A stretch of 64,000 nucleotides of DNA from Hymenobacter sublimis (GCF_023101345.1 NZ_CP095848.1:2485297-2549296); one strand, 5' to 3'. Positions 14,376-63,668 are shown, counted from the stretch's first letter. The notes: a model not told the origin generated them from the sequence alone. Translations and numbers: made by a program.

Positions 14376-14490
14376 TTGCCCGGCTGTAGAGACGCGACAC
14401 TTCGCGTCTTGTCATTGCTGACGTTATTTAGACTGCGCGGTTCCTGGTCGTTCTGACGCCGAGACGCGAAGTGTCACGTCTCTACAGCTG
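14376..14490. repeat. Pair of inverted hairpin repeats (GAGACGCGA-AGTGT-CGCGTCTC family) between the Y-RNA array and the rsr stop
   Basis: GTAGAGACGCGACACTTCGCGTCT at ~14385 and AGACGCGAAGTGTCACGTCTCTAC at ~14465, in opposite orientation. Related copies lie at 16951-16982 and 17028-17050. Confidence 0.55.
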
Positions 14491-14562: not shown

Positions 14563-16134
14563 TTACAACACTATCTGTTCGATTTCGGTAAGAGCGAATC
14601 CGCCATTGTCGAGGGCGGCCAGCACGTCGAAAATCTTATCCGACCAGCCGGCAATCAGGGCTGCACCTTGTTCGGGGTGTACTTGCAGGGGCGCGGTGCC
14701 ATGACCGGCTAGGTCGAAGAGGTATAGCTGGGCCTGTGGAGCAACGGTGCGCCGGTACTCCGCCCATTCTTTGGCCATGTTGGTGCCGTTGAAGTGAGAG
14801 TTCCAGAGCTGGCAGTCGGTGAAGAGCATTACCTTATCTACTACCTCCCGGCGGCGGCGCAAGTCCTCGATAACCAGGTAGCCGTTAGTGCTGTAGCCTA
14901 CCTCGCCTTCGCGGCGGTAAAACTCCTGCACGTTGCGCAAAATGGGGCCACGGGGCAGCGTCAGCCGCTTCCAGGTGTCGCCGAACATGCCGGTTACCAC
15001 GTTCTGGCAGCGGCTCTGCAGGAGCATGCCCAGCACCAGGCCCACGTCGTAGTACAGCACTTTGCTGCGCTGAGAAATAGGCTGTTGCATGGAGCCCGAC
15101 ACGTCACAAGCTACCACTACCCGAGTTTCCGAGCCGAAGCCGCGCAGGTTGGCGGCGCTGTGGCCGATGGCCGCTTCCAGGGCTTCCAGCACCTGCGGCA
15201 CCGGGCTCTGGCGCAACCCCACTGCCATCAGCACCGACTGCAGCGTGCCTGCTTCCAAAGCCTTTACCTCACGGTAAGCGGCCAGAAAGCGGAAGGGCAG
15301 CTGCTTGCTGCGGGCTACGGCCCGCGCATCGGCGAGGGTGGCACACACTTGCGCTACTGCCTCGGCTGGTACACCAGCCTGCAGGATGTTGCGCAGGTTG
15401 CGTAGCAGGGCCATGTAGCCCAACTTGCCGCTACCAATTAGCTCCGTCCACTTCTGGCGGAAAGCGGCCGCCCGCTCTGCCTCCGACGTAAATCCTACCT
15501 GTCCCAGAGCCGACAATTCAGTCTCCCAGGTGTAGGGCGTAGGGAGGGTGCCGGCCACCAGCTGGTTAAATAAGGCTTGCTGGCCTTCGTCGGCGGGGCG
15601 CGGGTGCACCAGGAACAGGGCGTCGCGGAGGCGCACGGTGCCGGCCCGGTCGTACTTGGCCAGTTGGTAGCCGTCGAAGCGGTTGAAGGCTTGGGCCAAC
15701 CCTTTCTGCACCTGCTTGGAGAGACGGTTGAGGGTTTTGAGGCCGGTGCGGCCGTTGGCTTGGGCGTAATAGGCCAGCAGCTCCGTGATTTCGTCGGGGC
15801 GCTGTACCACACGAGCTACCAGGCGGCTGACCAGGTTGGTACCCTGGTGCAAGCGGGCCAGCTCTACGGCCAATACCAGCGGCACGGAGCGCAAATACAG
15901 CCTTTCGCGGGCATACACAGCTAGGCGGGCCACGAACTCCGCATCGTTGCGAGCCACTAATTCGCGCAGACGCACTAAGCGGGTATCGGCGGTTTCGTAG
16001 AACTGGTCGCTGAGGGCGGCAGTAGCCACGGCGGCGTACAGCTCCAGCGCGGGAGTGAGCATAGTAGCCGGTGCACCCTCGTGGTTGAGCACCGGAGCCG
16101 GAGTAGGCGGGCGGAAGGGGAAGTTGAAACGCAT
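14563..16134 (-). CDS. rsr: Ro60-related protein Rsr (TROVE domain + C-terminal vWA domain)
   Basis: N-terminal TROVE-like region 'YARERLYLRSVPLVLAVELAR'; C-terminal vWA with MIDAS 'VVVACDVSGSM'; ~523 aa; sits next to rtcB with structured ncRNA units between them. Confidence 0.75.
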   Translation of the reverse strand: MRFNFPFRPPTPAPVLNHEGAPATMLTPALELYAAVATAALSDQFYETADTRLVRLRELVARNDAEFVARLAVYARERLYLRSVPLVLAVELARLHQGTNLVSRLVARVVQRPDEITELLAYYAQANGRTGLKTLNRLSKQVQKGLAQAFNRFDGYQLAKYDRAGTVRLRDALFLVHPRPADEGQQALFNQLVAGTLPTPYTWETELSALGQVGFTSEAERAAAFRQKWTELIGSGKLGYMALLRNLRNILQAGVPAEAVAQVCATLADARAVARSKQLPFRFLAAYREVKALEAGTLQSVLMAVGLRQSPVPQVLEALEAAIGHSAANLRGFGSETRVVVACDVSGSMQQPISQRSKVLYYDVGLVLGMLLQSRCQNVVTGMFGDTWKRLTLPRGPILRNVQEFYRREGEVGYSTNGYLVIEDLRRRREVVDKVMLFTDCQLWNSHFNGTNMAKEWAEYRRTVAPQAQLYLFDLAGHGTAPLQVHPEQGAALIAGWSDKIFDVLAALDNGGFALTEIEQIVL

Positions 16135-16949
16135 CGGATAGAAAAATCAGGCAGTGAGTACTAATGAATGACGGCTATAACCAGAATAAATAACTCGTAC
16201 TTTTTACCTAGGAAAGCACACACTTTTTCCAGCATAATTCACGCACGAATTATTAAATAAAACTTTAGAAAATCAAAGACAATACTTTCCCTTTACACCC
16301 CAAAAATAGGATGATCTTATTTTAAATAACCAGATAAATTAATTTGACTAAGCCAAGTTTACACCGTGTTTGCTTACGCAGAGGTGCTAGCCTTTAGCCA
16401 TTGCTGCTACTCCGGTTTACTACCGTTTTGCCAAGTCGCAACGACTGATAGTCGCGGGCAATTGAGGGTAATACGGATGGAGTGCGAGGGGTAAAGAGAA
16501 TAACATCATGGGAAGTAGGATAGATAGAAGATGAAAACAAAAACGCCCGAATCTGATATGATTCGGGCGTTTGCGGAGGATGGTTCTAGAGTAGAAACCT
16601 TACCTGTCTGCTGGCGCGCCGAACCCCGGCTGAATCTCCCGATCCAGCTTGCTGAGTGATGGCATATCTTGATTAAAGTGGCGGCACATGACAGGAAAGG
16701 TGTAAAAGTCGTTAGCGTTTGGGCTGTTGAACGCGACAAAGGTAGAAAAGTTATTTTCTTACCAACAAGTTTGGTTCATAAATTTTTAAAATATTTTTCA
16801 CACATAAATTAAATGCCCTTTCAAAGGTTTATTTCAAGGTTTTTATTAATTATTTAGAAAGAATAAAACTAAATTTTTACCCTTTTGCTTTACCAGACAA
16901 ACGATATTTCATTCTGATTAAGGAGTTTTTGCATAGTGTGTAACGGTGT

Positions 16950-17060
16950 AGCAGCAGACGCGCATTTCGCGTCTGCTACCAGAACAACCTGCTTAGCGCC
17001 ACATGCGGTACAGACCGTTCAACGAAGAGACGCGAAGTGTCGCGTCTCTGCATATCAGTC
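16950..17060. repeat. Two hairpin repeats of the GACGCG...CGCGTC family, located past the 5' end of rsr
   Basis: GTAGCAGCAGACGCGCATTTCGCGTCTGCTAC and GAGACGCGAAGTGTCGCGTCTCT. Confidence 0.5.
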
Positions 17061-17238
17061 CTGTTCACCTCAGCTCTAACCTTGTGCAGCTGCTGTTGCA
17101 GCTAAAGCGGGGGTAGCGTCGAGGAAATGACGGGGTTAGTAGATGTTTTTAGCGCCCCGGAAAGGCCAGGAGTAGGTTTGAGCACTGATCTACTAAACCA
17201 GGTCAGCGTTTACTTCTTCTTTCTTCCTTTACTACCCT

Positions 17239-17715
17239 ATGAAAAAGTTTCTGGCAACTTCCCTCCTGCTCGGTCTGCTGGCCGGCGCTACCGCTCCCGC
17301 CGCTCTGGCCCAGACCACTCCCGCTAAAACCAAAGTCAAAGCCAAGAAAGACAAGGTGAAAGCCAAAGGCACTGCCACTGACGCCACGGCTCCCACAGAA
17401 GGCCGTGGTGGTGCGGGTGGCCGGGGCGGACGCGGCAACATGCTGGCGGAAATGACCAAGGAGCTCAACCTCACGGCCGACCAGCAAACTAAGGTGGCCG
17501 CTATTCAGCAAGAGCAAATGCAACAGATGCAGACCCTGCGCGCCAGCGGCGAAACTACCGACCGTCAGGCTCGCATGCAGCAAATGCGCAGCCTCGATGA
17601 AAGCACCAATGCTAAATTGCAAGGAGTGCTCACGCCCGAGCAATTTCAGCAGTACCAGGCCAAAAAGCAGGAGCGGATGCGCCGCCCCGGCCCGCCAGCC
17701 GGCGGCACCCGCTAA
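17239..17715 (+). CDS. Periplasmic LTXXQ-motif protein (Spy/CpxP-like) with signal peptide
   Basis: N-terminal signal 'MKKFLATSLLLGLLAGATAPAALA'; two LTxxQ motifs ('LNLTADQQTKV', 'LTPEQFQQY'); Gln/Met-rich helical repeats. Confidence 0.55.
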   Translation: MKKFLATSLLLGLLAGATAPAALAQTTPAKTKVKAKKDKVKAKGTATDATAPTEGRGGAGGRGGRGNMLAEMTKELNLTADQQTKVAAIQQEQMQQMQTLRASGETTDRQARMQQMRSLDESTNAKLQGVLTPEQFQQYQAKKQERMRRPGPPAGGTR

Positions 17716-17829
17716 GCGGCGCAACCAGATAGTGTCTGAAAAATGCTAGACCATCGTGCTTGATCCGGCGGCCGAATAGTCGAAGCAGGACATGTTCATG
17801 AGAGGCGCTGCTTAATTCCTGACCCGTAC

Positions 17830-17930
17830 CCGTGCTGCTGAGCCGCACGAAAGACCTGCTCCAGTTTAAACGGCCCGCTACTGGGGGCCTACTCTGACGG
17901 AAGTAGGTCCTTCGTGCGGCTCAGCGGCAC
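17830..17930. repeat. Inverted repeat with ~28-bp arms (CCGTGCTGCTGAGCCGCACGAAAGACCT / AGGTCCTTCGTGCGGCTCAGCGGCACGG). Terminator or MITE-like.
   Basis: Seen directly in the sequence, downstream of the LTXXQ protein gene. Confidence 0.5.
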
Positions 17931-17981
17931 GGGTTTCCAAGGCCCTTCGTATTCTTACCGATTGTAAGCACAGCCAGCCAC

Positions 17982-19040
17982 TTGATGTTAAGCAAGAACA
18001 AAACCACTCGTCAGCGGGTGCTGCGCGTGGTTGTGCACGTCGCGGCCTGGGTGGGGGTAGCCTTTATTCCGCGTCTGCTGTCGGATAACCCGCCGCCATT
18101 TCAGCTACGACACCTGACGCTGCCGCTGCAGCTGGCGGGCTACTTCTACCTGAATTACTACGTGCTGATTCCGCGCCTTTTTGCCCGGAAGAAGTTTGCG
18201 CTTTATTTCCTGGTAGCCTTGGGTTTGCTGGGGTTGATGTACATGCCCATGCTACTGCGGATGGCGGGCATTATCCAGCCCATGCACCACCGGCCGCCGG
18301 GCGCCATGCACTACTCGCGGCCGCCCCAGGGTCTGTGGGTGATGGGCATTCTGGTCTGGATTATTAGTAGCGGCCTGCGCATTACCAGCGAATGGTTTGA
18401 CGCCGATAGCGCCCGGCGCGACCTGGAAAACAAGCAACTCACGGCCGAGCTGGCCTTTCTTAAGTCGCAGGTAAGCCCGCACTTCCTGTTCAACACGCTC
18501 AACAACATCTACTCCCTGGCTCAGTTGAAATCAGACGACACGCCGGAGGCCATCATGCAACTGTCCCAACTCATGCGCTACATGCTATATGAGTCGGCCG
18601 CCGCTAGGGTGCCGCTGGCCCGCGAGACGGAGTACCTGCGCACCTACATTGACTTGCAGCGCCTGCGCCTCGACCCCGAGGAAGTAGACATTCGGTTTAC
18701 CGTGGATGGGCCTCTGGATGGGCATTTAATTGAGCCTATGCTGTTGATTCCGTTCGTGGAAAATGCCTTTAAGCACGGCATCAGCGCCCAGAACTTTTCG
18801 CGCATTGCCGTGAATTTGATTGTGCGCGAAGACCAATTGCTATTCACGGTGCAGAACTCGCGCTTTCCCCGCACCGGCGGCCACGACCCCAACTCCGGCA
18901 TCGGGCTACCCAACGTGCGCCAGCGCCTGCACCTGCTCTACCCCGACGGCCGCCACCAGCTGCACGTAGAGGAAACCGACGATGAATTTATGGTAGAACT
19001 CACTCTGACTTTAGCGTATGCTCCGGTGCCTGCTCGTTGA
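17982..19040 (+). CDS. LytS/YehU-type sensor histidine kinase (membrane N-terminus + His_kinase domain)
   Basis: 'FLKSQVSPHFLFNTLNNIYSLAQL' H-box region typical of LytS-family kinases. Hydrophobic N-terminus. Confidence 0.8.
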   Translation: MMLSKNKTTRQRVLRVVVHVAAWVGVAFIPRLLSDNPPPFQLRHLTLPLQLAGYFYLNYYVLIPRLFARKKFALYFLVALGLLGLMYMPMLLRMAGIIQPMHHRPPGAMHYSRPPQGLWVMGILVWIISSGLRITSEWFDADSARRDLENKQLTAELAFLKSQVSPHFLFNTLNNIYSLAQLKSDDTPEAIMQLSQLMRYMLYESAAARVPLARETEYLRTYIDLQRLRLDPEEVDIRFTVDGPLDGHLIEPMLLIPFVENAFKHGISAQNFSRIAVNLIVREDQLLFTVQNSRFPRTGGHDPNSGIGLPNVRQRLHLLYPDGRHQLHVEETDDEFMVELTLTLAYAPVPAR

Positions 19041-24859: not shown

Positions 24860-24965
24860 AGCTTGTCATGCCGAGGCATAGCCGAAGCATCTCGCGGGCT
24901 GACACTTGGTTTACTACCTCAATGTCAGCCCGCGAGATGCTTCGGCCATGCCTCGGCATGACGTT
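24860..24965. repeat. Large inverted repeat with ~40-bp arms (GTCATGCCGAGGCATAGCCGAAGCATCTCGCGGGCTGACA ... reverse complement) and ~20-bp loop
   Basis: Seen directly in the sequence. Partial relatives lie at 38775-38800, 53445-53475 and 55897-55945. Confidence 0.55.
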
Positions 24966-29225: not shown

Positions 29226-29544
29226 CGTTTCCCTGGCCCTCTTCCCTACCTCAACCCATGAAACTACTCCATTGGATTGGCGTGGTTTTTTGACCACGGC
29301 CAGTCTGCTGAACCTGTTTGAGCAGCTACCACCTTCGTCGGTGGTCAGAATACCGGTTGCTGGCATTGGCCTGTACGGCGCGAGGGTAAGCCGCTACCTG
29401 TGCCGGCCGGAGCACGAAAAACGCGCGCTGCGGTAGCTGCCGGTGGGGGTAGTAACCTGCTAATATGGTGGAGCTTTGCTGGCTTTTTCGGTTCTTTCCG
29501 ACCTAGATGCGCGCTAATGCGGCGCGGCTTGCTTTTTTGGTACG

Positions 29545-30198
29545 ATGACTGACCTGTTTCACGCGGCGCTTTTGCCAGCCAATCTGCTGCCCACGGCCCT
29601 ACTGGTATTTGTGCTGCTCTACTGGCTGACCGTAATTACCGGCCTGCTCGATTTCAAGTCCCTGGATTTGGACGTGCATCATCACCCGGAGCTGCACCAC
29701 ACCCACTTTCACGCCCCTGAGGGCATGGGCGTAAGTTGGTTAAATCACGCTTTGGCTTTTTTCAACCTGGGTCGGGTGCCGCTGATGGTGTTTGTGGCTT
29801 TTGTGGCCCTACCGCTGTGGGTAGGCAGCATTCTGCTTAACTATTACCTGGGTAACAGCTCTTGGCAGCTGGGGTTGCTGCTACTGCTGCCGTTGCTGCT
29901 GGTGGCGCTGCTGGTTGCCAAGGTCCTGACCACGCCGTTCGTGCATGTGTTTGCCGCCTTCGAGAAAGACCACCACGATGGTACCCGGCCCCTGGGCAAG
30001 GTTTGCACCATTCTGCTACCCGCCAGCCAGCAGCACCTGGGCCAGGCCAGCGTGGCAGTGCCCAACGGCGCCCCCCTGATGCTCAACGTGCGAGCCGCCG
30101 ACGCCACCACGGAGCTGCGCAAGGGCGACTCGGCCCTGGTGATTGATTATGATGAGCAGCGCCGCTGCTACGTAATTGAACCCTACGAGGTGTCCTGA
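29545..30198 (+). CDS. YqiJ/NfeD-like membrane protein (OB-fold C-terminal domain); probable flotillin partner
   Basis: Multi-pass hydrophobic N-terminus and a C-terminal beta-rich 'ASVAVPNGAPLMLNVRAADATTELRKGDSALVIDYDEQRRCYVIEP' resembling NfeD OB-folds. A flotillin gene lies downstream. Confidence 0.5.
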   Translation: MTDLFHAALLPANLLPTALLVFVLLYWLTVITGLLDFKSLDLDVHHHPELHHTHFHAPEGMGVSWLNHALAFFNLGRVPLMVFVAFVALPLWVGSILLNYYLGNSSWQLGLLLLLPLLLVALLVAKVLTTPFVHVFAAFEKDHHDGTRPLGKVCTILLPASQQHLGQASVAVPNGAPLMLNVRAADATTELRKGDSALVIDYDEQRRCYVIEPYEVS

Positions 30199-30220
30199 GT
30201 GCTAAATTCTGCTACCTTTA

Positions 30221-30643
30221 GTGCACGCTTTACTCGCCATGAATCAGGTGTTTAAGTCCAATATAAGCTGGTGGCTTTTCGGGCCGATTCTGGGCGGCCT
30301 GGGCTTCTTTTTGCTGCTGGCCGTAGCCCAGCAACGCTGGGTAGCAGGCCTGGTGGTGCTCGTACCGGTCTGCTTTATTATCTATCTACTCTTGTCCACT
30401 GCCTACACCATTACGCCGCAGAAACTCATTATTACATCCGGGCCGCTGCGCCTGCGCCTGGCAGGACAGGACATTACCAGCATCTATCCTACCCATACCC
30501 CCATTAGCTCCCCGGCCCTTTCGCTCGACGACCGATTGGCAATACGCTACGGCAAGTTTGATTCCGTGCTGGTATCACCCGCCGCCAAGGCTGGTTTTCT
30601 GGCTGGGTTGTTACAGCTTAATCCTGCTATCCGTCATGATTGA
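30221..30643 (+). CDS. Hypothetical membrane protein
   Basis: Two or three transmembrane segments. Confidence 0.4.
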   Translation: MHALLAMNQVFKSNISWWLFGPILGGLGFFLLLAVAQQRWVAGLVVLVPVCFIIYLLLSTAYTITPQKLIITSGPLRLRLAGQDITSIYPTHTPISSPALSLDDRLAIRYGKFDSVLVSPAAKAGFLAGLLQLNPAIRHD

Positions 30644-30916
30644 CTTGCTGGGTACTCTAAAAACGTTCTGGCACTGGCTGGGCAGTCTGCTGCTGGATGG
30701 CCTACTGGCCGATTTCTTCGCTTGGCTGGCCGAGTGGCTGTTTCCGTGAGCTACCCGCTGGCGCTGAGCCTACCCCAACCTTTTCTTTCCTAACCTTCTG
30801 CCGGCGGCTCCTGCCCTGCGCGGACAGGAACCGGCATCCCTAGTCTCTACCAACCCGCGCCCTAGCTAGGGCGCCCTACCTCTGAATCTATTTCTTTACC
30901 CCTACCCCCTACTTCC

Positions 30917-33085
30917 ATGTTGGAACAACTCTCCCTGGCGGTGATACTCATCGTTGCCGTCCTCTTATTGGGCTTTCTAGCCATCATTGCCCGCATGTAC
31001 CAGAAGGCGGTGCAGGGCGAAGCCCTCGTCCGGACCGGCATGGGCGAAACCAAGGTTTCCTTTAGCGGCATCTTCATCGTGCCCATCCTGCACAAGATGG
31101 AGGTGATGGACATCAAGCTCAAAACCATTGTTATTGCCCGGGCTGGCTCCGAAGGGCTGGTCTGCAAAGACAATCTGCGGGCCGATGTGAAGGTGAACTT
31201 CTTCGTGCGCGTCAACAAAACCCACGATGACGTGCTGAACGTGGCTCAGAGCATCGGGGCCCACCGCGCCTCCGACCCCGCGGCCCTGGAAAACCTCTTC
31301 GACGCCAAGTTTTCAGAAGCGTTAAAGACGGTAGGCAAGCACTTCGATTTCATCGAGTTGTATAATTCCCGCGAGCAGTTTAAGCAGGAAATCCTGCGCA
31401 TTATCGGCACCGACCTGAACGGCTACGTGCTCGACGACTGCGCCATCGACTACCTGGAGCAAACCCCGCTGACCGCGCTCAACCAAGACAATATTCTGGA
31501 CGCCGAGGGCATCAAGAAAATCATTGCCCTGACCTCGGAGCAGAAGATTCAGGCCAACTCCATCCAGCGGGAGCAGCAGAAAACCATCAAGAAGCAGGAC
31601 GTTGAGGCCCAGGAAACCATCCTGCAGCTGGAAAAGCAGCTGATTGAAAACCAGGAAAAGCAGAAGCGCGAGGTAGCCAATATCAAGGCTCGTGAAGCCG
31701 CGGAGGCCGAAAAAGTACAGCAGGAAGAGCGTCTGAAATCAGAGCGGGCCCGCATTGCCACCGAAGAAGAAGTGCGCGTGGCTGAGCAGAACCGCGACCG
31801 GCAGGTGCTGGTGGCCGAGCGCAACAAGCAGCGCACCGACGCCGTGGAAACCGAGCGCGTCGCGCAGGCCCAAGCCCTGGAGGCCAACGAGCGGGAGCGG
31901 ATTGTGGCCCTGGCCCAGATTGAAAAGGAAAAGGCTCTGGAAGAAGAGAAAAAGAACATCCAAACCATCATTCGGGAGCGAATCACGGTAGAAAAAGCCA
32001 CGGTTCAGGAAGAAGAAAAGATAAAGGACACCCGCGCCCAGGCCCAGGCCGACCGCGAAAAGCTGGTGGCCCTGACCGCCGCCAAGCAGCAGGCCGAAGC
32101 CGCCACGGTGGCTCTGGTAGGCAATGCCGACATGGAAAAACAAGCCGCCGAGTTCCGCGCCAAGCAGGCCCTAATTGACGCCGAAGCCGAGAAAGCCGCC
32201 GCTGAGTTCAAGGGTCAAGCCATTCGTACCCTGGCCGAAGCCGAAGCCAGCAAAGCCACCGCCGTGGGCCTAGCCGAAGCCCAGGTGATGCAAGCCAAAG
32301 CCACCGCCCGCCAGAAAGAAGGCGAAACCGAGGCCACGGTGCTGCAGCTTACCGCCGCCGCCGAAGCCCAGGCCATTCAAGCCAAAGCCGGTGCCCAGGC
32401 CGAAGCCGACGAAAAACTAGGCCTGGTAGCCGCCAAAATCAACCGTGAAAAAGGCCTCGCCGACGCCGACATCATTCAGGCCAAAGCCGACGCCGACCAG
32501 AAGAAGGGCCTGGCCGAAGCCGCCGTATCGGAGCAGAAGTTTGCGGTGGAAGCCAAGGGCATCGAGGCCAAGGCCGACGCCATGAAAAAGCTCGATGGCG
32601 TGGGCAAAGACCACGAGGAGTTCAAACTGCGCCTCGACAAGGAAAAGTCGGTGGAGCTGGCCCAGATTAGCATTCAGAAGGACATTGCCGCCTCCCAGGC
32701 CGATGTTATCGGCGAGGCCCTCAAGGCCGCCAAAATCGACATTGTGGGCGGGGAAACGATGTTCTTCGACCAGATTATTGGCTCTATCACGAAGGGTAAG
32801 ATGGTGGACCGCGCCGTGCACAACTCCGAAGTGCTGGGCACCGTGAAAGACGCCTTCTTCTCCCTGGACGGGGGCGGCGACTTCAAAACCAACCTGCGTC
32901 GCTTTGTGGATCAGTTCGGCCTGAGCAGTGAAGACATGAAGAACCTCAGCGTCTCGGCCCTACTGCTAAAGATGATGAACCAAGCCGGCGACGACGCCAC
33001 GCGTGCCACCATCACCCAGCTGGCCAGCACCGCGCAGGTGATGGGCATCGGCGACAAGCCGGCCAAGATGCTAGAGCTGAAGTAA
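30917..33085 (+). CDS. Flotillin-like SPFH/band-7 protein with very long Ala/Glu/Lys coiled-coil repeats (YqiK/FloT-like)
   Basis: N-terminal TM and SPFH core 'VRTGMGETKVSFSGIFIVPILHKMEVMDIKLKTIVI...DNLRADVKVNFFVRV', then ~350 aa of 'EAEKAAAEFKGQA'-type repeats. Confidence 0.85.
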   Translation: MLEQLSLAVILIVAVLLLGFLAIIARMYQKAVQGEALVRTGMGETKVSFSGIFIVPILHKMEVMDIKLKTIVIARAGSEGLVCKDNLRADVKVNFFVRVNKTHDDVLNVAQSIGAHRASDPAALENLFDAKFSEALKTVGKHFDFIELYNSREQFKQEILRIIGTDLNGYVLDDCAIDYLEQTPLTALNQDNILDAEGIKKIIALTSEQKIQANSIQREQQKTIKKQDVEAQETILQLEKQLIENQEKQKREVANIKAREAAEAEKVQQEERLKSERARIATEEEVRVAEQNRDRQVLVAERNKQRTDAVETERVAQAQALEANERERIVALAQIEKEKALEEEKKNIQTIIRERITVEKATVQEEEKIKDTRAQAQADREKLVALTAAKQQAEAATVALVGNADMEKQAAEFRAKQALIDAEAEKAAAEFKGQAIRTLAEAEASKATAVGLAEAQVMQAKATARQKEGETEATVLQLTAAAEAQAIQAKAGAQAEADEKLGLVAAKINREKGLADADIIQAKADADQKKGLAEAAVSEQKFAVEAKGIEAKADAMKKLDGVGKDHEEFKLRLDKEKSVELAQISIQKDIAASQADVIGEALKAAKIDIVGGETMFFDQIIGSITKGKMVDRAVHNSEVLGTVKDAFFSLDGGGDFKTNLRRFVDQFGLSSEDMKNLSVSALLLKMMNQAGDDATRATITQLASTAQVMGIGDKPAKMLELK

Positions 33086-33099
33086 AGATTGACTACCCC

Positions 33100-33270
33100 A
33101 GCTAGAAACTAAAACTAAAAACTAGCTCCCCTCCTCAGATGAGGAGGGGTTGGGGGTGGTTGACCCGCACGTCTGAACAACCTACTAGTTTTAGTTTTCT
33201 AAATCTAGTGTTTCAACCACCCCTACCCACTCCTTGGATAAGGAGGGGAACTAGCCTCTAGACTTCTATA
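33100..33270. repeat. Nested palindromic MITE-like element: TIR-like CTAGAAACTAAAACTAAAAACTAG / CTAGTTTTAGTTTTCTAAATCTAG, plus hairpins CCCCTCCTCAGATGAGGAGGGG and CTCCTTGGATAAGGAGGGG
   Basis: Seen directly in the sequence. A related hairpin CCCCTCCTCAACTGAGGAGGGG plus AACTAG lies at 33668-33700, after the DUF559 gene. Confidence 0.55.
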
Positions 33271-33273
33271 GCT

Positions 33274-33696
33274 ATGCCTGATACAAATCACATTCATAAT
33301 CTAGGCTATCAAAAAGCTATCCGCCGCACACTTCGCAGCAACCTCACACCTGCCGAAGCTCTGCTCTGGAAAGCACTTCAGCGCAGCCAACTAGCCGGCC
33401 GCAAGTTTCGTCGCCAGCATGGCATCGGTCCGTACATCGTGGACTTCTACTGCTCAAGCAAAAAGCTGGTGGTAGAGCTGGATGGCGCCGGACATTTCAC
33501 GGCTAATGGTGAGGCGCAGGATGCCGAACGGGACGCTTATCTGGGCAGCTTAGGCCTGAAAGTGCTGCGCTTTGAGAACGAGCTATGCTTGCAACATATC
33601 GAGAGTGTATTAGCGACTATTGAGGCTGCTTTTCAGACCATCGTTCTATCATCGTCAACCACCCCTAGCCCCTCCTCAACTGAGGAGGGGAACTAG
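33274..33696 (+). CDS. DUF559 (Vsr-like endonuclease fold) domain protein
   Basis: 'LTPAEALLWKALQR...KFRRQHGIGPYIVDFYC...LVVELDGAGH...DAERDAYLGSLGLKVLRF' is typical of DUF559. Confidence 0.75.
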   Translation: MPDTNHIHNLGYQKAIRRTLRSNLTPAEALLWKALQRSQLAGRKFRRQHGIGPYIVDFYCSSKKLVVELDGAGHFTANGEAQDAERDAYLGSLGLKVLRFENELCLQHIESVLATIEAAFQTIVLSSSTTPSPSSTEEGN

Positions 33697-33735
33697 TTTC
33701 TAGTCTTAGCCCTAGCTGATGTTCGGGCTGCTTTT

Positions 33736-36700
33736 ATGGAACAAACTACCCAACTCGAAACCGGCACCTACGAAATTCTGCGCAACCGCCTGCTCAAGAG
33801 CAGCACCGACCTGCGCCAGCGCCTGGACCTGCTCAATACCGAGCGCAAGCAGGTGTTTGGGGCCGTGGATACGCGCCTGCTAGGCACCGGCCGCATTACC
33901 ACTGAAAATAACTGCGTGCCCTGGGACATGGTGCCGGTGGGGCAGCGGTTCATCTTCGGGTACAACGTGGTGCTGGGGCTGAAAGCGGAGCCGGACTTGG
34001 CCGATGTATTTGGGGTGTACGAATATGCCGAGCACGATTTCCGGCCGCTGGGCCTGGAGCTGCTGCAGAACCCGCAGTTTCTGGAGGAGTTCCGCAACCT
34101 GTACCGCTACTACAAGAACACCCAGTTCGTGAAGTTCGCGGTGATTGGGGCGCACTTGTTTATGGTGTTTCGGGTGGGCAAGAGTGCTTCCGACGTAAAG
34201 ACGTTTAAGTGGCTAATGCAGGGCGAGACGCTTACCTACCTCGACAACCGCTCCGACCACGAGTACACCTTTCCGCCCCAGCACGAGTTCCAATGGAAGC
34301 GCGCCACCCGTGACATGCAGCGCGGCGGCAAGCACCCCCACATCAGTATCGAGGACAAGGTGTTCGTGGAAACCGTGGGCGGCGACCTGACCATTAAGGT
34401 GGAGGACAACACCAGCACCGGGCAGGGCATTTTGAGCGAGCCGGTCGACGATAAGGATCAGACCCTGGACGACTCGGAAATCTACTATGCGGTAGTGGGC
34501 AATCTGATTCTGCTCAAGATCCGGCCCTACCAGGAGCAGCAGTACCGCTACTTCATCTTCAACCACAAGCTCAAAACTGCTCAGCGCCTCGATGCCCTGG
34601 CCGATGCCTGCGTGCTGCTGCCCGACGGGCAGGGCCTGATCTTTCCGCACGGCTTCTACCTGCAAACCGGCGACAACAAGCTCTTCGATAACGGCCTGCG
34701 CGAGATGCTGTTCGAGAAGCGCGTCGTGTCGCCCAACGGGGAGGATTCCCTGTATGTGTTCTTCAACAAGGACCACGGCACCTACCTGCTGCTGAGCTAC
34801 AACCGCATTGCCCAGCGCGTCGATAACCCCATCGTGTGCCACGGCTATGCTCTGTTCGAGAATGGGGAGCTGTGCTACTTCCGGGCCGACGATGAGCCCA
34901 AGAAGCACCACGCCGTGCAGATCTGGCAGACGCCCTACACCGCCCCGGATTTCCAGCTGCCCGTCACCTCCGATTCTTACCTCTACAAGCTGGGTAACAA
35001 GGAGATTGTGCGGGCCATGAGCGAGGTGCAGGAAATCCTGACGCTGACCAGTAAGGACGACTCCTACGCTGGCCTCTACCTCGACCTGATTCGCCAAACG
35101 ACCAGCCTCACCGACGCCTACCACTGGCTGCGCGAGCCCGCCGCCCAGGCCCTGGCCAAGCCCTTGGGTGAAATCCGCCAGACGGCCACGGCCGCCGTGG
35201 AGGAGTTTGAGAAGGTGCAGAGCATCCGCAAAAACGCCGCCCAGCAAACCCAAACTATTTTCCAGAAAGCCGACGAGCTAATAGGCCGCATCCGCCGCTC
35301 TGCGCCCGATACCGTCACGGAGTTTGTGCAGCTGCTGGGCGAGTTGCGCGGGGTGCGGGGCGAGGTAATTTCCCTGAAGGAGCTGCGCTACGTGGAGCTG
35401 CCGGCCGTGGAAAAGCATGCCACCGACTTGGAAGCCCTGAGCAAAGAAGTGGCCCTGCAAACTGTGGACTTTCTGCTCAAGCCCGATGCCCTGGCCCCTT
35501 ACTCCCAGCGCGTGCAGGCCATAGCTGAAGGCGTAGAGCAGGTGCAGAAAACCGTAGAGGCCGATCAGCGCGAGCAGGAAACGGCCGCCGTGGCCCAGGA
35601 GCTGGAGCTGCTGATTGAGGTAGTGAGCAACCTGCCCATCCCCGACCCGACCCAGACCACGGCCATCATCGACAACATCTCGACCGTGTACGCCCGCTTC
35701 AACCAGATTCGGGCGGCGCTGAAGCGGCGGCGGCAAGCCCTGGCCGGCACCGAGGCCCAGGCCGAGTTTACCGCCCAGCTCAAACTGCTGGAGCAGGCCC
35801 TGACCAACTACCTCGACCTGGCCGATACGCCCGCCAAGTGCGACGAGTACCTGACCAAGCTCATGGTGCAGCTCGAAGAGTTGGAAGGCAAGTTTCCCGA
35901 CTTCGACCAGTTCATTGAGCAGCTCACCACCCGGCGCGAGCAGGTAGTAGAAGCTTTCGAGTCGAAGAAAACGGCCCTGGTAGCGGCCCGCAACCAGCGC
36001 GCCACGGCTTTGCTGCAAAGCGCCGAGCGGCTGCTAAAGGCCGTGCAAAGCCGCCTCACCCGCCTGGAATCGGTGGCGGATATCAACGGGTACTTTGCTG
36101 CCGACGTGATGGTGGAAAAGGTGCGCCAAACGGCCCAGGAGCTCATCAACCTCGGCGACTCGGTGAAGTCGGACGACGTACAGAGCCGGCTGAAAACCCT
36201 GCGCGAGGATGCCGTGCGCCAGCTCCGCGACCGGGCCGACCTCTACGCCGACGGCGGCCAGACCCTTAAGTTCGGCCCCCATGCCTTTACCGTCAACACC
36301 CAGCCTCTGGAGCTGACCGTGGTGCTGCGCGACGGCGACCTGCACTACCACCTCACCGGCACCAACTTCTTCCAGAAGATAACCGACCCGACCCTGCTGG
36401 CCTCCAAGCCCGTCTGGGAACAAACCGTGCTGTCGGAAAACCAGGACGTGTACCGGGCCGAGTTCCTGGCCTGGCGCATTCTGCAGGCGGCCCAGCACCC
36501 CACGCCCGCCGATGCGGAAGCGGGCCACCCCGCTGTGCTGTCCGTACCCGAGCTAGGCCACCTCAGCGCCGCCGAGCTACTGGCCTACGTGCAGCAGTTT
36601 ATGGCCGCGCGCTACCAGGAAGGCTACCTTAAAGGCGTGCACGACCACGACGCCGCCCTGCTGCTCACGGCCCTGGTGCGCCTCACGCGCACGGCAGACT

Positions 36701-38739
36701 TACTCCGCTACCCGGCCGACACCCGCGCCGCCGCGGCCCTCTACTGGCTGCGCTTCGCCAACCCCGACCAGCGGGCCCACTGGGAGCGGCAGCTCCAGGG
36801 CATCGGGGTGCTGCTCCAGGTCTTCCCCGATTCCCAGGAGTTCGACGAGCTCAAAACCGAGCTGCAAATGGCCGTAAACCGTTTCGCGGAGCAAACCGGC
36901 CTGTTCACCCCCGCCCAGGTGGCGGATGCCGGCGACTACCTCTTCCACGAGCTGACCCACACCGGCACTTTCATCATTGCCGCCGAAGCCGCCGAGCTCT
37001 ACCAGCAGTTACAGAAGCAGCTGCAGGAGCGCCAGGCCACGGAGCTGTTTCAGCAGTCGGTGATGGGCCTCCAGGACCAGCCGGTAGCGCAGTTTAACTT
37101 GGTGCGACAGTGGGTGCAGGCGGCGCAGTTCCGTGGACCCCACCCCCCAACCCCCTCCCCGGTGGGGAGGGGGAGCCAGACGGCTATGCAAGCAAAGCAA
37201 GTGCCCTCACTCCAGAACGCACCCCTCCCCACCGGGGAGGGGCTGGGGGTGGGGTCCGCTGGGCTAGCCCTCGAAACTGCCGTGCTCCTGCTCACTGGCA
37301 CCTACGACCCGGCCCGCGTGGTGCACACCCCTACCCTCGAAATACTCGAAAACCTCCAGGGCAGCCACCCACGCATCCCCGAAAACCGGACCTACCAGCT
37401 CAACTTCCCCGATTTCCGCCGCCGACTGCTGCACTACGACCGCGCCACGGTAGTCCAGTACGAGGCGTTTCAGGAGGTGAAAAAGCAGCTGCTGGCCCGG
37501 GCCGCCGAGGACATGCGCCTGGAAGATTTCCGGCCCCGCGTGCTCACCTCCTTCGTGCGCAACCGTCTCATCGACCAGGTGTATCTGCCCATCATCGGGG
37601 CCAACTTGGCTAAGCAGATCGGGACGGCGGGGGAAGGTAAGCGCACCGACCTGATGGGCTTGCTCCTGCTCATCTCGCCGCCCGGCTACGGCAAAACCAC
37701 GCTCATGGAGTACGTGGCCAACCGGCTGGGCCTCATCTTCATGAAGATCAACGGGCCCGCAATCGGACACGCCGTGACGAGTGTAGACCCCGCCCAGGCC
37801 CCCAACGCCGGGGCGCGGCAGGAGCTGGAGAAGCTGAACCTGGCCTTCGAGATGGGCGACAACGTGATGATTTACGTGGACGACATCCAGCACTGCAACC
37901 CCGAGTTTCTGCAGAAGTTTATCTCCCTCTGCGACGCCCAGCGCAAGATTGAGGGCGTGTACCAGGGCCGCCCCCGCACCTACGACTTCCGCGGCCGCAA
38001 GGTGGCAGTGGTGATGGCCGGCAACCCCTACACCGAAAGCGGCGACGTGTTCCAGCTGCCCGACATGCTAGCCAACCGCGCCGACATCTATAACCTCGGC
38101 GACATTCTCACGGCGGGCTCTGAAGACGCCTTCCGCCTCTCCTACCTCGAAAACGCCCTCACCAGCAACGCGGCCCTGGCCCGCCTCGCCACCCAAAGCC
38201 CCCAGGACGTGCCCGCCCTCATCCGCCTGGCCGAAACCGGGCAGCAGGACGGCCTCAGCTTCGAGGGCAACCAGACGCCCGAGGAGTTGAACGAATATGT
38301 GGCGGTGCTGCAAAAGCTGCTGCGCCTGCGCGACGTGGTGGCCCGCGTGAATGTGGCCTACATTGCCAGCGCCGCCCAGGCCGACGCCTACCGCACCGAG
38401 CCGCCGTTCAAGCTCCAGGGCTCCTACCGCAACATGAACAAGCTGGCCGAGAAAGTGCGCCCCGTCATGAACGACCAGGAAATTGAGCAGCTCCTGGCCG
38501 CCCACTACGAAAGCGAAGCCCAAACCCTGACCAGCGCCACCGAAGCCAACCTGCTCAAACTGCGCGAGCTGCTCGGCTGGCTCACCCCCGAGCAAGCCGC
38601 CCGCTGGCAGCAAATCAAGCAAACCTACCTCGACAACCTGCGCAACTCCGGCGCCGGCCAACTCCTACAGATGCTCGATAAGCTGGAAAACATTGCCGGT
38701 GGCCTGAGCGGAATTCGGGAGGCGTTGAAACGGGAGTAA
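33736..38739 (+). CDS. Very large (1,667 aa) uncharacterised protein with a C-terminal P-loop (AAA+-like) ATPase domain
   Basis: Walker A 'LLLISPPGYGKTTLMEY' and Walker B 'VMIYVDDIQH' near residues 1300-1400; no other recognisable motif. It carries an in-frame palindromic insertion at 37131-37262. Confidence 0.7.
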   Translation: MEQTTQLETGTYEILRNRLLKSSTDLRQRLDLLNTERKQVFGAVDTRLLGTGRITTENNCVPWDMVPVGQRFIFGYNVVLGLKAEPDLADVFGVYEYAEHDFRPLGLELLQNPQFLEEFRNLYRYYKNTQFVKFAVIGAHLFMVFRVGKSASDVKTFKWLMQGETLTYLDNRSDHEYTFPPQHEFQWKRATRDMQRGGKHPHISIEDKVFVETVGGDLTIKVEDNTSTGQGILSEPVDDKDQTLDDSEIYYAVVGNLILLKIRPYQEQQYRYFIFNHKLKTAQRLDALADACVLLPDGQGLIFPHGFYLQTGDNKLFDNGLREMLFEKRVVSPNGEDSLYVFFNKDHGTYLLLSYNRIAQRVDNPIVCHGYALFENGELCYFRADDEPKKHHAVQIWQTPYTAPDFQLPVTSDSYLYKLGNKEIVRAMSEVQEILTLTSKDDSYAGLYLDLIRQTTSLTDAYHWLREPAAQALAKPLGEIRQTATAAVEEFEKVQSIRKNAAQQTQTIFQKADELIGRIRRSAPDTVTEFVQLLGELRGVRGEVISLKELRYVELPAVEKHATDLEALSKEVALQTVDFLLKPDALAPYSQRVQAIAEGVEQVQKTVEADQREQETAAVAQELELLIEVVSNLPIPDPTQTTAIIDNISTVYARFNQIRAALKRRRQALAGTEAQAEFTAQLKLLEQALTNYLDLADTPAKCDEYLTKLMVQLEELEGKFPDFDQFIEQLTTRREQVVEAFESKKTALVAARNQRATALLQSAERLLKAVQSRLTRLESVADINGYFAADVMVEKVRQTAQELINLGDSVKSDDVQSRLKTLREDAVRQLRDRADLYADGGQTLKFGPHAFTVNTQPLELTVVLRDGDLHYHLTGTNFFQKITDPTLLASKPVWEQTVLSENQDVYRAEFLAWRILQAAQHPTPADAEAGHPAVLSVPELGHLSAAELLAYVQQFMAARYQEGYLKGVHDHDAALLLTALVRLTRTADLLRYPADTRAAAALYWLRFANPDQRAHWERQLQGIGVLLQVFPDSQEFDELKTELQMAVNRFAEQTGLFTPAQVADAGDYLFHELTHTGTFIIAAEAAELYQQLQKQLQERQATELFQQSVMGLQDQPVAQFNLVRQWVQAAQFRGPHPPTPSPVGRGSQTAMQAKQVPSLQNAPLPTGEGLGVGSAGLALETAVLLLTGTYDPARVVHTPTLEILENLQGSHPRIPENRTYQLNFPDFRRRLLHYDRATVVQYEAFQEVKKQLLARAAEDMRLEDFRPRVLTSFVRNRLIDQVYLPIIGANLAKQIGTAGEGKRTDLMGLLLLISPPGYGKTTLMEYVANRLGLIFMKINGPAIGHAVTSVDPAQAPNAGARQELEKLNLAFEMGDNVMIYVDDIQHCNPEFLQKFISLCDAQRKIEGVYQGRPRTYDFRGRKVAVVMAGNPYTESGDVFQLPDMLANRADIYNLGDILTAGSEDAFRLSYLENALTSNAALARLATQSPQDVPALIRLAETGQQDGLSFEGNQTPEELNEYVAVLQKLLRLRDVVARVNVAYIASAAQADAYRTEPPFKLQGSYRNMNKLAEKVRPVMNDQEIEQLLAAHYESEAQTLTSATEANLLKLRELLGWLTPEQAARWQQIKQTYLDNLRNSGAGQLLQMLDKLENIAGGLSGIREALKRE
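37131..37262. mobile_element. MITE-like palindromic element inserted in-frame within the giant ORF
   Basis: TIR-like GGACCCCACCCCCCAACC ... GCTGGGGGTGGGGTCC flanks two hairpins, CCCCTCCCCGGTGGGGAGGGGG and CCCCTCCCCACCGGGGAGGGG. It encodes 'PHPPTPSPVGRGS...PLPTGEGLGVGS'. Confidence 0.5.
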
Positions 38740-38846
38740 GCATCAATCCAGAACGCCAGAGGTGCAACCGAAGCATCTCGCGTGCTGACGTTGCCAAATT
38801 AACTCAGCCTTTTCGCCTGACATTCACTGCTATTGTAAGGGCCAAG

Positions 38847-39227
38847 ATGTTCACGCACAATTCGCTTACCGAGTTCCTACTAACAATCCTTGCGGGTTGT
38901 GCCCTGCCGGTTGCTGGTCAACATAGCAGGCGACGCTTCTTGCGGCTGCATCACCGCGGACTCCGCACGCAAGGCACTGTTATCAGCTTCCGGAAAACCG
39001 ATGATGATCGGTACGCCACGATTTGCTTTCTTACTGAGGACAACCGCCAGATAATTCAGGAAGTCAATGACCACGGCTATTCCAAAGAATCCTCACTTTC
39101 TATTTGGTATGATCCTCTTTTACCAACTCATTTTGTCATTGGCTCTCCCTCGAAACTAGGCTTCTACTTAACTACCCTTCTTGGAACCGTCCTGATCGTC
39201 TATGCTGTCTGGCAGCTTATCTCCTAG
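38847..39227 (+). CDS. Hypothetical membrane protein
   Basis: N- and C-terminal hydrophobic helices. Confidence 0.35.
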   Translation: MFTHNSLTEFLLTILAGCALPVAGQHSRRRFLRLHHRGLRTQGTVISFRKTDDDRYATICFLTEDNRQIIQEVNDHGYSKESSLSIWYDPLLPTHFVIGSPSKLGFYLTTLLGTVLIVYAVWQLIS

Positions 39228-39974
39228 CAACTCCGGCATCGGTTAGCTCTTTCAGCAGATGCTGGATAGCGGGAAAGCATTGCTGGTAGATTGAGCGCGG
39301 AGGACATACAGTAAATTCTAGAAGCTACCTCTGTATGACCACTTCCCGCGCTGTGGAGAAGAGTACATTTAGATGCGGCAGGCCTGGTATAGCCAAAATC
39401 CGTTTTCGTAGGTCAGCATGAATTCTAGATGACAGGATAACAGGCTCAGCTTGTTTTATATAAGGACCACTATAATGAAGCCAGTCATATACAAACAAGC
39501 CATACCAAGCGTAGTCTTTCCAGACAGCTGAGGTACCAAGCCTCGGTAATATGAAGCCAGAAGTAATCGTATCGTAAGCCTGAAAGTTACGTCTTACTTC
39601 AAGTGGTATTTCTCCATATCCACTCGACGCAAACAAGCCTATCTCTCCTGAAGTGTCAACTGCAAACCAGTCAAAATCCATTCCATCAAAATGCTCTCCG
39701 TAACCTGATTCTTCCACATGTATCCTTTTTCATTTAGCTAACCCAGCTGGCGCCAATGTAGCACAGCGTGAAGATTGTATTCCACTGTCGCGCTAGAGTT
39801 CAGTGCCGCGTGACTTGAACCTTAGTATCTCTGATAGCCAGAGCTTTGGTACCTCCACCCATCAGCCCTCCCTTGCTACCCACTTAATTTACCTTCTTAT
39901 GGGCAAGCAATACCTCACCACCAGCGCTGACAACCAGCTCTTTATCGAGCATCAGCACATATTCTTCGTAAGTA

Positions 39975-60940: not shown

Positions 60941-62008
60941 ATGAATTCTTTTCTCTACCTCCGGGGCCTCAAGTCTGCTTCGCACACTGTGTTTGGCGTC
61001 AGCCAGGGACAGAAATATTACTACGACCCGCAATTTTCTACCCGAATGCCTTATTCCAGCGGCCAACAGGTGAAACGCTCGGTGCTGGAAGTATTTTTAG
61101 CGGAATTAGGCCTGTCGCCCGCACCCGTTACGTTCGTGTCCAACCTCGATAAGAACGGCAAGCTTGGCGAAGGTGAACCGTGGTCGGCATGCGACCCGCG
61201 GCACCCTGACCAACTCGTTGGCGGCTGGATGCGAGCCCAAAAAGGTGGTGACAACCGCACGTTGAAAAGGCGTAGCCCACTTTCTATCTCGGCCATGCGC
61301 CCCCTGCATCCTTTGCTAGCCGGCATGAGCAGCGAGAACATCACGTTTGACCGCAGCGACCGGCCTACTCTACACAAGGTCATTGTGCGGGACGCCGATA
61401 ATAAGGAGTTAAGCGAGGAAGAACTAGCTGCTTTGTTAAAAGGTACCGACCGGAGCGTGTTGCGGAAGTGGATTCCTGAAAATACCCGCGCCAGTGGCCT
61501 ATTCGTGTATGATGTAGCCGTGGACATGCGCACCCTGTTTTGCGTGTCGACCAACGACACGGAGCCGGAAGTGACGCCCGCCATTCGCGAAGCCCTGCAA
61601 GCTACTGGGTGGCAACCGGGCGTGAATTCCTTCGGACCGTGCCTAGTGTGCCCGCCGGAGCAGCGCGAGAAGCTAATTCCCGCTCTGGCTAAAGCCCTGC
61701 TCGACTGGCGCATTCTCACCAACCAAAGTCGCACGTTTGATTTGATGAAGACGTTGGCCGTTGCCGTTTCCGACAACGCCAACGCCATCGGGGCCGCCAT
61801 CCGGGCGAAGCTGGTACCCGAATCAGAAGGCAGCGAGCGGCCGAAAGCTCGCCCTGTGCTCGAACAAGTAAATGGCGTGGACTTGTTTATTACGCCTAGC
61901 GCCGCCGAATACGTCTTTACGGAAGAAGAACGCGCCGATGCGCTATCTGACGCCGAGCAAGAAATAGCACGCCGGCTGCGGGCATTCAGCTACGAGCAGC
62001 AAGTATAA
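60941..62008 (+). CDS. cas7: Candidate Cas7 backbone subunit
   Basis: 'PYSSGQQVKRSVLEVF' resembles the Cas7 'PGSSxKG' loop; operon position. Confidence 0.5.
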   Translation: MNSFLYLRGLKSASHTVFGVSQGQKYYYDPQFSTRMPYSSGQQVKRSVLEVFLAELGLSPAPVTFVSNLDKNGKLGEGEPWSACDPRHPDQLVGGWMRAQKGGDNRTLKRRSPLSISAMRPLHPLLAGMSSENITFDRSDRPTLHKVIVRDADNKELSEEELAALLKGTDRSVLRKWIPENTRASGLFVYDVAVDMRTLFCVSTNDTEPEVTPAIREALQATGWQPGVNSFGPCLVCPPEQREKLIPALAKALLDWRILTNQSRTFDLMKTLAVAVSDNANAIGAAIRAKLVPESEGSERPKARPVLEQVNGVDLFITPSAAEYVFTEEERADALSDAEQEIARRLRAFSYEQQV

Positions 62009-62038
62009 ACCCCATCAGCTATCCTGGCTCTGCTTCGC

Positions 62039-62575: not shown

Positions 62576-62659
62576 GTGGTACAATAGGGCTAGGTGTCTG
62601 GTTTTATGTGAAATGAGATTTGTGCCGCCTTTCTAAAAGGAATCAGCTTAATTAATGAT

Positions 62660-63667: not shown

Positions 63668-63668
63668 G

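Follow-up and report, generated by a model that had tools for sequence, protein, structure and literature searches.

Results

An in-frame palindromic element in an ATPase gene

The stretch of DNA analysed here (the window) comprises 64,000 nt from Hymenobacter sublimis (NZ_CP095848.1:2485297-2549296) and contains a long open reading frame (ORF) for a DUF3686/AAA+ ATPase, within which a palindromic element lies in frame. The ORF is 100% identical to the H. sublimis protein, which comprises DUF3686 (aa 25-463), DUF7902 and an AAA+ module (aa 1310-1437). The ORF of a small DUF559 nuclease ends 40 nt before the ATPase start codon, and the related hairpins around it, which had been noticed earlier, belong to the same family as the element (Table 1). 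The element is a repeat of non-coding type that has come to lie within a gene; it consists of two inverted copies of a known repeat unit of the boxC/PIT/triplex-motif (TM) class, is read in frame and is polymorphic.

Table 1. Features of the ATPase-DUF559 region, numbered from the first nucleotide of the window.
Feature	Position	Strand	Description
Whole element	37135..37257	.	123 nt; inverted pair of triplex-motif units round a variable spacer
Left unit	37138..37173	-	C-arm (reverse complement of 37164-37173), loop, G-arm (reverse complement of 37151-37160), TTG, third G-tract GGGGGTGGGG (reverse complement of 37138-37147)
Spacer	37174..37221	.	48 nt in H. sublimis; hypervariable across species
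Right unit	37222..37254	+	CCCCTCCCC-ACC-GGGGAGGGG-CTG-GGGGTGGGG
Host gene	33736..38739	+	1667 aa; DUF3686 + DUF7902 + AAA+ ATPase; NCBI name 'DNA repair ATPase'
DUF559 (Vsr-like PD-(D/E)XK) nuclease gene	33274..33696	+	140 aa; Pfam PF04480, E = 5e-33; PDB 3hrl
Triplex-motif unit upstream of DUF559	33115..33163	-	CCCCTCCTC-AGAT-GAGGAGGGG-TTG-GGGGTGGTT
Degenerate unit immediately upstream of DUF559 start	33213..33261	+	'Heads-in' pair with 33115-33163
Unit over DUF559 3' end	33655..33703	+	TCAACCACCCCTAG-CCCCTCCTC-AACT-GAGGAGGGG-AACTAG

An earlier, sequence-only reading of the window had placed a palindromic insertion here and put its contribution at ~44 residues. The insertion is indeed in frame and stop-free, and its 123 nt correspond exactly to codons 1134-1174 (GPHPPTPSPVGRGSQTAMQAKQVPSLQNAPLPTGEGLGVGS), that is, to 41 codons. 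The terminal inverted repeats that had been described are present as GGACCCCACCCCC at 37135-37147 (plus strand) and 37245-37257 (minus strand), identical at 13/13 nt without a mismatch, and so are the two internal hairpins of 9-10 perfect pairs, CCCCCTCCCC-GGT-GGGGAGGGGG on the left (37151-37173) and CCCCTCCCC-ACC-GGGGAGGGG on the right (37222-37242), each 100% complementary. Overall, the inverted arms extend over 33 nt with 88% complementarity (37140-37172 and 37222-37254). The predicted RNA fold of the element (-111 kcal/mol, z = -8.4) was matched by 0/200 shuffles, and the predicted DNA folds of the two strands gave z = -8.3 and -8.7. ViennaRNA with its G-quadruplex option predicted a four-layer quadruplex for the G-rich strand of the right unit folded alone. 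A search of the element for promoter-like or terminator-like sites found none.

The Walker A loop of the ATPase (GPPGYGKTT, ~aa 1314-1322) lies ~140 residues downstream of the element, which is therefore not located just before the P-loop region, as had been supposed. The suggestion that the element forms a linker fared better: in an AlphaFold prediction of residues 1001-1667 based on 54 aligned sequences, residues 1136-1172 were modelled as coil with a predicted local distance difference test score (pLDDT) of 33-40, between confidently predicted helices with pLDDT >90. On this model, the element-encoded segment is a linker in a predicted disordered interdomain loop of the DUF3686/AAA+ ATPase.

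Each arm is a triplex-motif unit

boxC, PIT and TMECO are names for the same repeat, a G/C-rich intrastrand triplex motif of the form CCCTCNCCC-N3-6-GGGNGAGGG-N3-GGGNGAGGG (Holder et al. 2015, PMC4666352). Both arms of the element match this published architecture without mismatch: the left unit, read from the minus strand, has a perfect 10-3-10-3-10 pattern, and the right unit has a perfect 9-3-9-3-9 pattern that would give eight G.G:C triads and one T.A:T triad. Because each arm fits the triplex-motif architecture, the element is an inverted pair of such units. The sequences reported earlier as terminal repeats and hairpins are all there, but as the parts of two inverted triplex-motif copies.

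Each arm is one unit of ~35 nt, CCACCCC-N-CCCCTCC(YC)-loop-(GR)GGAGGGG. The pattern CCACCCC-N2-5-CCCCTCC-N6-9-GGAGGGG occurs four times in the window, versus zero expected, with two matches in the element and two beside the DUF559 ORF, and viral contigs of very different G+C contain at least 120 matches to the unit pattern. The third tract was tested in antiparallel (mirror) register, with G.G:C, T.A:T or A.A:T counted as compatible. Across all fetched DNA, a fully triad-compatible third tract was present 1-6 nt away in 24% of pyrimidine/purine hairpin flanks, versus 0.5% at a control offset of +60 nt. The third-tract base was T in 410, A in 153 and another base in 27 positions opposite a purine-arm A (T/A in 563/590), and G in 2337/2392 positions opposite a purine-arm G (other bases in 55); this split between T/A and G is partly built in by the selection of units, which leaves the enrichment over the control unaffected. 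Mirror covariation of the tracts was seen in the pairs GAGGAGGGG/GGGGTGGTT, GGAGAGGGG/GGGGTGAGG and AGGGAGGGG/GGGGTGGGT. Searching Rfam with positions 33000-37500 at E <= 1 yielded only chance microRNA hairpin matches, and at gathering thresholds no Rfam family was found for the units at 20 DUF559 loci.

The units resemble TMECO in their order of parts (9-nt C-arm, 3-6-nt loop, 9-nt G-arm, 3-nt loop and 9-nt mirror G-tract), in the occurrence of opposite-strand inverted pairs, five of which exist in Escherichia coli K-12 (PMC4666352), and in having variable loops with conserved stems, unusually rearranged loci and copy numbers that range widely among related strains. They differ in primary sequence, with CCCCTCCCC/GGGGAGGGG/GGGGTGGGG in Hymenobacter and CCCTCNCCC/GGGNGAGGG in E. 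coli. In addition, the Hymenobacter copy is found in Bacteroidota and is intragenic and translated in frame, whereas TMECO has been reported as always intergenic; the association with DUF559 described below is absent from the TMECO account of Holder et al. (PMC4666352).

The linker is polymorphic among orthologs

We aligned 116 full-length ATPase orthologs and built a tree with the insert region masked. A 17-aa linker without the element was found in 22/22 orthologs of the sister genera Pontibacter, Rufibacter, Adhaeribacter and their relatives, and the element is also missing from about half of the Hymenobacter orthologs, the remainder holding different variants at the same loop; the protein polymorphism that the sequence-only reading had raised as a possibility is thereby confirmed. 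Within Hymenobacter, linkers of 17-18 aa and Pro/Gly-rich inserts of 25-82 aa are interleaved in every clade, and the H. lucidus ortholog, which is 93% identical overall, has the short linker YLRQAPAAATLSDFCNEC. DNA identity between H. sublimis and H. lucidus is ~92% and falls to 74-78% only within about 37030-37425. The ancestral state of the loop is the 17-18-aa linker without the element, over which the net gain is about 34 aa. In filled alleles, ~12 residues (~36 nt) of the old linker are gone and a target-site duplication is absent; the sequences on either side of the element, CAGTTCCGT and GCTGGGCTA, have no direct repeat in common.

The insert DNA can be sorted by its end sequences (GGACCCCACCCC, AACCTCACCCC and CACCCCACCCC) into at least three types of arm, which are read in frames that differ from species to species; the short 25-aa inserts consist of one long hairpin. 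The sublimis-type element is common to Hymenobacter sp. UYP22 and H. lapidiphilus, and the insertion is therefore old rather than recent. Its arms are 94-96% (UYP22) and 82-96% (H. lapidiphilus) identical to those of H. sublimis, versus 66-87% for the adjoining coding DNA. The spacer core is ~62% identical, with spacer lengths of 48 nt in H. sublimis, ~55 nt in UYP22 and ~135 nt in H. lapidiphilus. An inversion of the spacer between H. sublimis and UYP22 was considered and rejected, as the spacer ends are collinear and the centre alone differs.

Other copies of the repeat

The element is a copy of a small repeat family, as had been proposed; the family is dispersed across loci and phyla, and this copy lies in frame in coding sequence. 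Near-identical arms were recovered in other contexts from metagenomes. In H. monticola, a 17-kb stretch holds five or more elements that share a single subfamily, and the right arm of its intragenic element is near-identical over ~60 nt to an intergenic pair just upstream of its DUF559 gene. In H. telluris, the arms of a pair without DUF559, 9 kb away, match the DUF559-flanking units. The exact right arm of the sublimis element was found on ten metagenome contigs, none of them with the arm in an ATPase gene or beside a DUF559 gene; three of the ten have intergenic pairs sharing both arm and spacer-edge sequence. Two others (L215 2895-2926 and L216 526-557) show one solo unit, SSPLPTGEGPGVGAPP, that is read in frame within the ispE-like gene of a bacterium with high G+C (GHMP kinase confirmed), which is a second case of this repeat class within an essential-type gene.

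No match to the exact right arm was found in the viral contigs, and a distant search of a plasmid database with the element gave a single 45-nt match of no use. Because stop-free frames are unreliable for calling intragenic units in high-GC DNA, as in the viral contigs, they were not used for this purpose. An exhaustive representative peptide search, which is insensitive to short inserts in long proteins, returned only two ORFs over tandem arrays. These two (P0241 and P0242, 418 and 197 aa) come from other bacteria, contain 3-6 tandem copies of similar pairs (..PSPQPSPGGRGS..SPLPEGEGLGVRG..) and are probably spurious gene calls over repeat arrays.

Four unrelated strong inverted-repeat elements are also present in the window (4139-4248, 14383-14488, 17828-17934 and 24865-24962), with arms of 27-40 nt and 87-100% complementarity; one of them has 36-nt perfect arms made of GGGTCTT-like heptamers. 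This suggests that the H. sublimis genome carries several small palindromic repeat families. The G+C content is 0.49-0.50 at 16001-18000 and 62001-64000 of the window, versus about 0.58-0.60 elsewhere.

The DUF559 locus in Hymenobacter

In the unit at 33115-33163, the third tract carries T opposite both A positions of the G-arm, and conserved counterparts of this unit exist in H. telluris, H. tenuis and H. crusticola. Together with the degenerate unit at 33213-33261 it forms a 49-nt inverted pair whose fold has z = -7.0. CCCTCCTC..GAGGAGGG hairpins lie at 33129-33148 and 33670-33689, and the last ~12 codons and the stop codon of the DUF559 gene fall within the downstream unit. The C-terminal ..STTPSPSS.EEGN* shared by at least 35 Hymenobacter DUF559 proteins is translated from this unit (L124-L126, L204 and L205), and further homologs finish in its other frames (..QPPLAPPQLRR.. 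and ..NHP).

Across Hymenobacter species, at least four different arrangements fill the short spacer that separates the gene for a 722-aa protein from the ATPase start: a type 1 DUF559 gene with 'heads-in' units; a 41%-identical type 2 DUF559 gene with 'heads-out' units or with a pair of units before it; a repeat pair alone; and a single long hairpin with a DUF3592 gene. The comparison covered window positions 33080-33740, L001 9370-10005, L002 9490-10005, L206 5815-6005 and L207 5410-6020. The UYP22 DUF559 protein is only 41% identical to that of H. sublimis, yet its gene occupies the same intergenic site, where the units are 'heads-out'. The ends of the ATPase element aligned to the UYP22 DUF559 flanks with scores of 56 and 50, versus shuffle maxima of 35 and 37.

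Prediction of the intragenic element from the presence of DUF559 upstream was rejected as a strict rule, the nine species compared having both (five), DUF559 only (two), the insert only (one) or neither (one). The wider ATPase neighbourhood (window ~29500-39300) is conserved and contains a helix-turn-helix/peptidase S24 regulator, a CesT-like chaperone, PspA/IM30, small ORFs, the 722-aa protein, which has no Pfam match, the variably present DUF559 gene, the ATPase gene and DUF3592, as compared in L001-L003 and L204-L207. In Hymenobacter sp. DG25B, the ATPase gene is on a plasmid.

Triplex-motif units flank DUF559 genes in many phyla

We fetched 80 DUF559 loci from one-genome-per-species contigs by protein alignment to the DUF559 core only; they span Bacteroidota, Acidobacteriota, Nitrospirota, Patescibacteria, Proteobacteria, Spirochaetota and others. 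For hairpins with perfect 7-bp pyrimidine/purine arms, the density was 5.9/kb over the first 150 nt downstream of the core (57/80 loci) and 3.1/kb over the 290 nt preceding the core (54/80 loci), versus 0.04-0.09/kb beyond 1 kb, which amounts to an enrichment of ~70-100-fold beside the gene. Both sides carried hairpins at 49 of the 80 loci, and flanking inverted repeats exceeded the control maximum at 32/74 loci. Most commonly, the parts are arranged as hairpin-(variable small hairpin)-GGGGTGGTT ... ORF ... AACCACCCC-(variable hairpin)-hairpin. Thus, triplex-motif units are associated with DUF559 genes, on both sides, in many phyla.

In the E. coli K-12 region NC_000913.3 1351186-1351760, the DUF559 gene ycjD has a boxC/TMECO unit ~170 nt downstream. 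A partial duplicate of the ycjD 3' end (GGAGACGGTGCTGGAGAATATTC..) lies between ycjD and this unit. Among 5426 E. coli genomes, the repeat occupies a median of 18 places per genome and ycjD is present in 3378 (62%). In 60 evenly spaced genomes, the median number of repeat places was 18 with ycjD and 5 without it (p = 2e-10). Phylogroup confounds this correlation: A, B1 and C are the phylogroups with ycjD at the sapF-fabI site, and eefRABCD is found there in the others (PMC12817139). The zntA-tusA site, which holds the last remaining TM in one ycjD-less strain, is not the ycjD site and is uninformative on the empty site.

In the papers mentioning DUF559 or ycjD within the library searched, no link to boxC/PIT/TM repeats was found. 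DUF559 is listed among the gene families enriched at predicted invertible segments in a survey (PMC9881135), with which the inverted repeats flanking DUF559 genes are consistent. A homing endonuclease of the Vsr fold with a pseudopalindromic target provides a mechanistic precedent (PMC3239194).

Discussion

Proposed origin and maintenance of the element

We consider it likely that a pair of triplex-motif units entered the ATPase gene in frame by templated repair or recombination and has been tolerated in a disordered loop, with DUF559 as the most likely partner of the repeat. Since target duplication is absent and ~36 nt of the linker were replaced, we infer that the element entered when a break was repaired, or recombination took place, with another copy as template, and that no transposase brought it in by cut-and-paste. 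It may have persisted because its C-rich and G-rich arms are stop-free in any frame and would encode Pro/Ser/Thr-rich and Gly/Glu/Arg-rich coil; any in-frame, stop-free version would therefore be tolerated in such a loop. The arms would then be kept by their structure or by conversion from other copies, and slippage would alter the spacer.

The candidate partner is the small Vsr-like DUF559 nuclease, which would act either like RAYT with its REPINs or like a homing-type gene in its own split palindromic site. DUF559 in this role is plausible but unproven; the association is observed, and the mechanism we infer. That stand-alone DUF559 nucleases, YcjD included, recognise the flanking unit and drive its spread, homogenisation and local rearrangement is a tentative proposal, which may well prove wrong.

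Alternative explanations

The element had been called MITE-like (miniature inverted-repeat transposable element) in the sequence-only reading, and its perfect 13-nt terminal inverted repeats, its small size, the lack of an ORF of its own, the related copies nearby and a larger relative (L001) with similar ends round a gene are all what a deletion derivative of an insertion sequence (IS), moved in trans by a transposase acting on the terminal repeats, would show. However, a target-site duplication is lacking, and the element took the place of part of the linker; the gene between the similar ends encodes a DUF559 nuclease rather than a transposase; no parent IS or transposase with the ends of the element was found among the loci seen, the larger relatives carrying DUF559 between or next to such ends; solo units and single-hairpin forms are common; and the supposed terminal repeat is the third tract of a triplex, which covaries in mirror fashion with the hairpin arm, as would be unexpected of a transposase-binding end. 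A classical MITE is therefore very improbable, and the description of the family as active in H. sublimis is likewise not upheld, as the units in the window are confined to the DUF559 locus and the ATPase gene and the insertion is old. An artefact of assembly or sequencing, to which GC-rich palindromic DNA is prone, can be practically dismissed because the element recurs with the same boundaries in the independently sequenced UYP22 and H. lapidiphilus; its variants are found in dozens more species and in metagenomes, always in frame.

Conservation of the arms exceeds that of the flanking coding DNA, some version of the insert, in frame and stop-free, is present in each of about half of the Hymenobacter orthologs, and a strong mRNA structure, with a G-quadruplex for a single arm, is predicted. 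These features would fit a selected module, in which a Pro/Gly linker or a stable mRNA hairpin or G-quadruplex benefits the ATPase by a translational pause or a tunable linker length. We judge this improbable, given that all sister genera and roughly half the Hymenobacter species lack the insert although the protein is otherwise >=90% identical, that the peptide, its length (25-82 aa) and the frame of the arms all differ among species, that the same units occur in intergenic DNA and that no promoter-like or terminator-like site is present. A more serious rival is that host replication or repair errors at a structure-prone sequence spread the repeat without any dedicated enzyme, DUF559 genes, as small selfish nuclease genes, merely showing a preference for inserting into or surviving at unstable sites. 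TM loci are indeed tied to local rearrangement with no associated mobile-element genes (Holder et al., PMC4666352), the E. coli sapF-fabI site and the Hymenobacter spacer between the 722-aa gene and the ATPase gene are rearrangement hotspots with several alternative contents, and most units do not lie beside DUF559, only three DUF559 genes being found among the 120 unit-bearing viral contigs listed. Set against this are the two-sided, ~70-100-fold enrichment at DUF559 genes, which has a preferred orientation and extends to very distant phyla, the conservation of the flanking units while neighbouring spacer DNA diverges, and the smaller number of copies in ycjD-less E. coli, with its phylogroup confounding. 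On balance, we regard host errors alone as a rather unlikely explanation.

Several observations weigh against the involvement of DUF559 and templated arrival that we prefer. In the window, the family occupies two sites only (33115-33703 and 37135-37257), and the units flanking the sublimis DUF559 gene do not share the subfamily of the ATPase element. The insert is missing from H. tenuis and H. crusticola, which have DUF559, and present in H. lapidiphilus, which lacks DUF559. The orientation of units round DUF559 is mixed, most being 'heads-in' and those of UYP22 and some Pontibacter 'heads-out', and the E. coli correlation between ycjD and repeat number carries the confounding noted above. Holder et al. 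(PMC4666352) saw no link of TMECO to mobile elements or to the function of flanking genes, and no triplex in vivo, the structure having been seen only in single-stranded DNA in vitro. DUF559 genes might merely home into or accumulate at the motifs, so that the association could run the other way; no event of insertion was seen; and a selected mRNA or protein function might instead account for the arm conservation.

Relation to known systems

Like a REPIN, which is non-autonomous, the element has two inverted short palindromes and a spacer that together form one long hairpin (PMC3116915, PMC3337134), and the position of DUF559 at a conserved syntenic site recalls the REPIN/RAYT arrangement, in which a small, mostly vertically inherited enzyme gene is flanked by repeats. 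The flanked gene is, however, a DUF559 (PF04480) nuclease rather than Y1_Tnp, and a RAYT was not seen at the loci examined; moreover, the Hymenobacter units lack the 5' GTAG of REP sequences and have a mirror third tract, and the ATPase copy is intragenic. With the Rickettsia palindromic elements (RPEs), it shares the insertion of a ~100-150 bp palindrome in frame into a protein-coding gene, with a peptide tolerated at a surface or loop (PMC10969869). RPEs are Rickettsia-specific and encode a conserved peptide, whereas the Hymenobacter element is G/C-rich and unrelated, has triplex arms and varies in peptide and frame. REPINs and RPEs are therefore functional analogies, not groups to which the element belongs. 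Bacterial MITEs are also small and multicopy, with terminal inverted repeats, no ORF and occasional in-frame fusions; the Hymenobacter element differs from them in lacking a target-site duplication and, among the loci seen, a parent IS or transposase, and in that its terminal repeat lies within a structured unit that is also found singly.

DUF559 shares its Vsr-like fold with I-Bth0305I, an EDxHD homing endonuclease (PMC3239194), and other features are also reminiscent of homing: a small free-standing DUF559 gene lies between inverted half-sites, sister species harbour, at one and the same intergenic site, two DUF559 paralogs that are only 41% identical, and in at least two E. coli lineages ycjD stands in place of an operon at a single site. 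By analogy, we conjecture that the units flanking DUF559 may be a split recognition site. In contrast to homing nucleases, no cleavage activity or target is known for stand-alone DUF559, and there is no intron or intein context.

Significance

One ATPase loop holds different in-frame versions of the repeat, 25-82 aa long, in dozens of Hymenobacter species, which provides a natural example outside Rickettsia of repeat DNA generating a protein linker polymorphism. Triplex-motif repeats can thus live inside genes, which is new with respect to TMECO. For annotation, it is a warning that repeats are the source of Pro/Gly-rich 'low-complexity inserts' and of the tails at the C-terminus of DUF559 proteins.

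The cross-phyla association with DUF559 is the part of the result most worth following up. Recognition of the boxC/PIT/TM repeats in E. coli dates from the early 1990s, and hundreds of genomes contain them, with neither a function nor a means of spreading assigned to them; the very common DUF559 domain, for its part, has been given no role in its stand-alone form. The association therefore supplies a concrete hypothesis for both the repeat and the domain, which is testable in E. coli K-12 by means of ycjD and the 23 TMECO copies. If true, there would be a RAYT/REPIN-like or homing-like system across many phyla, whose non-autonomous pairs would colonise permissive loops and give rise to length-variable linkers.

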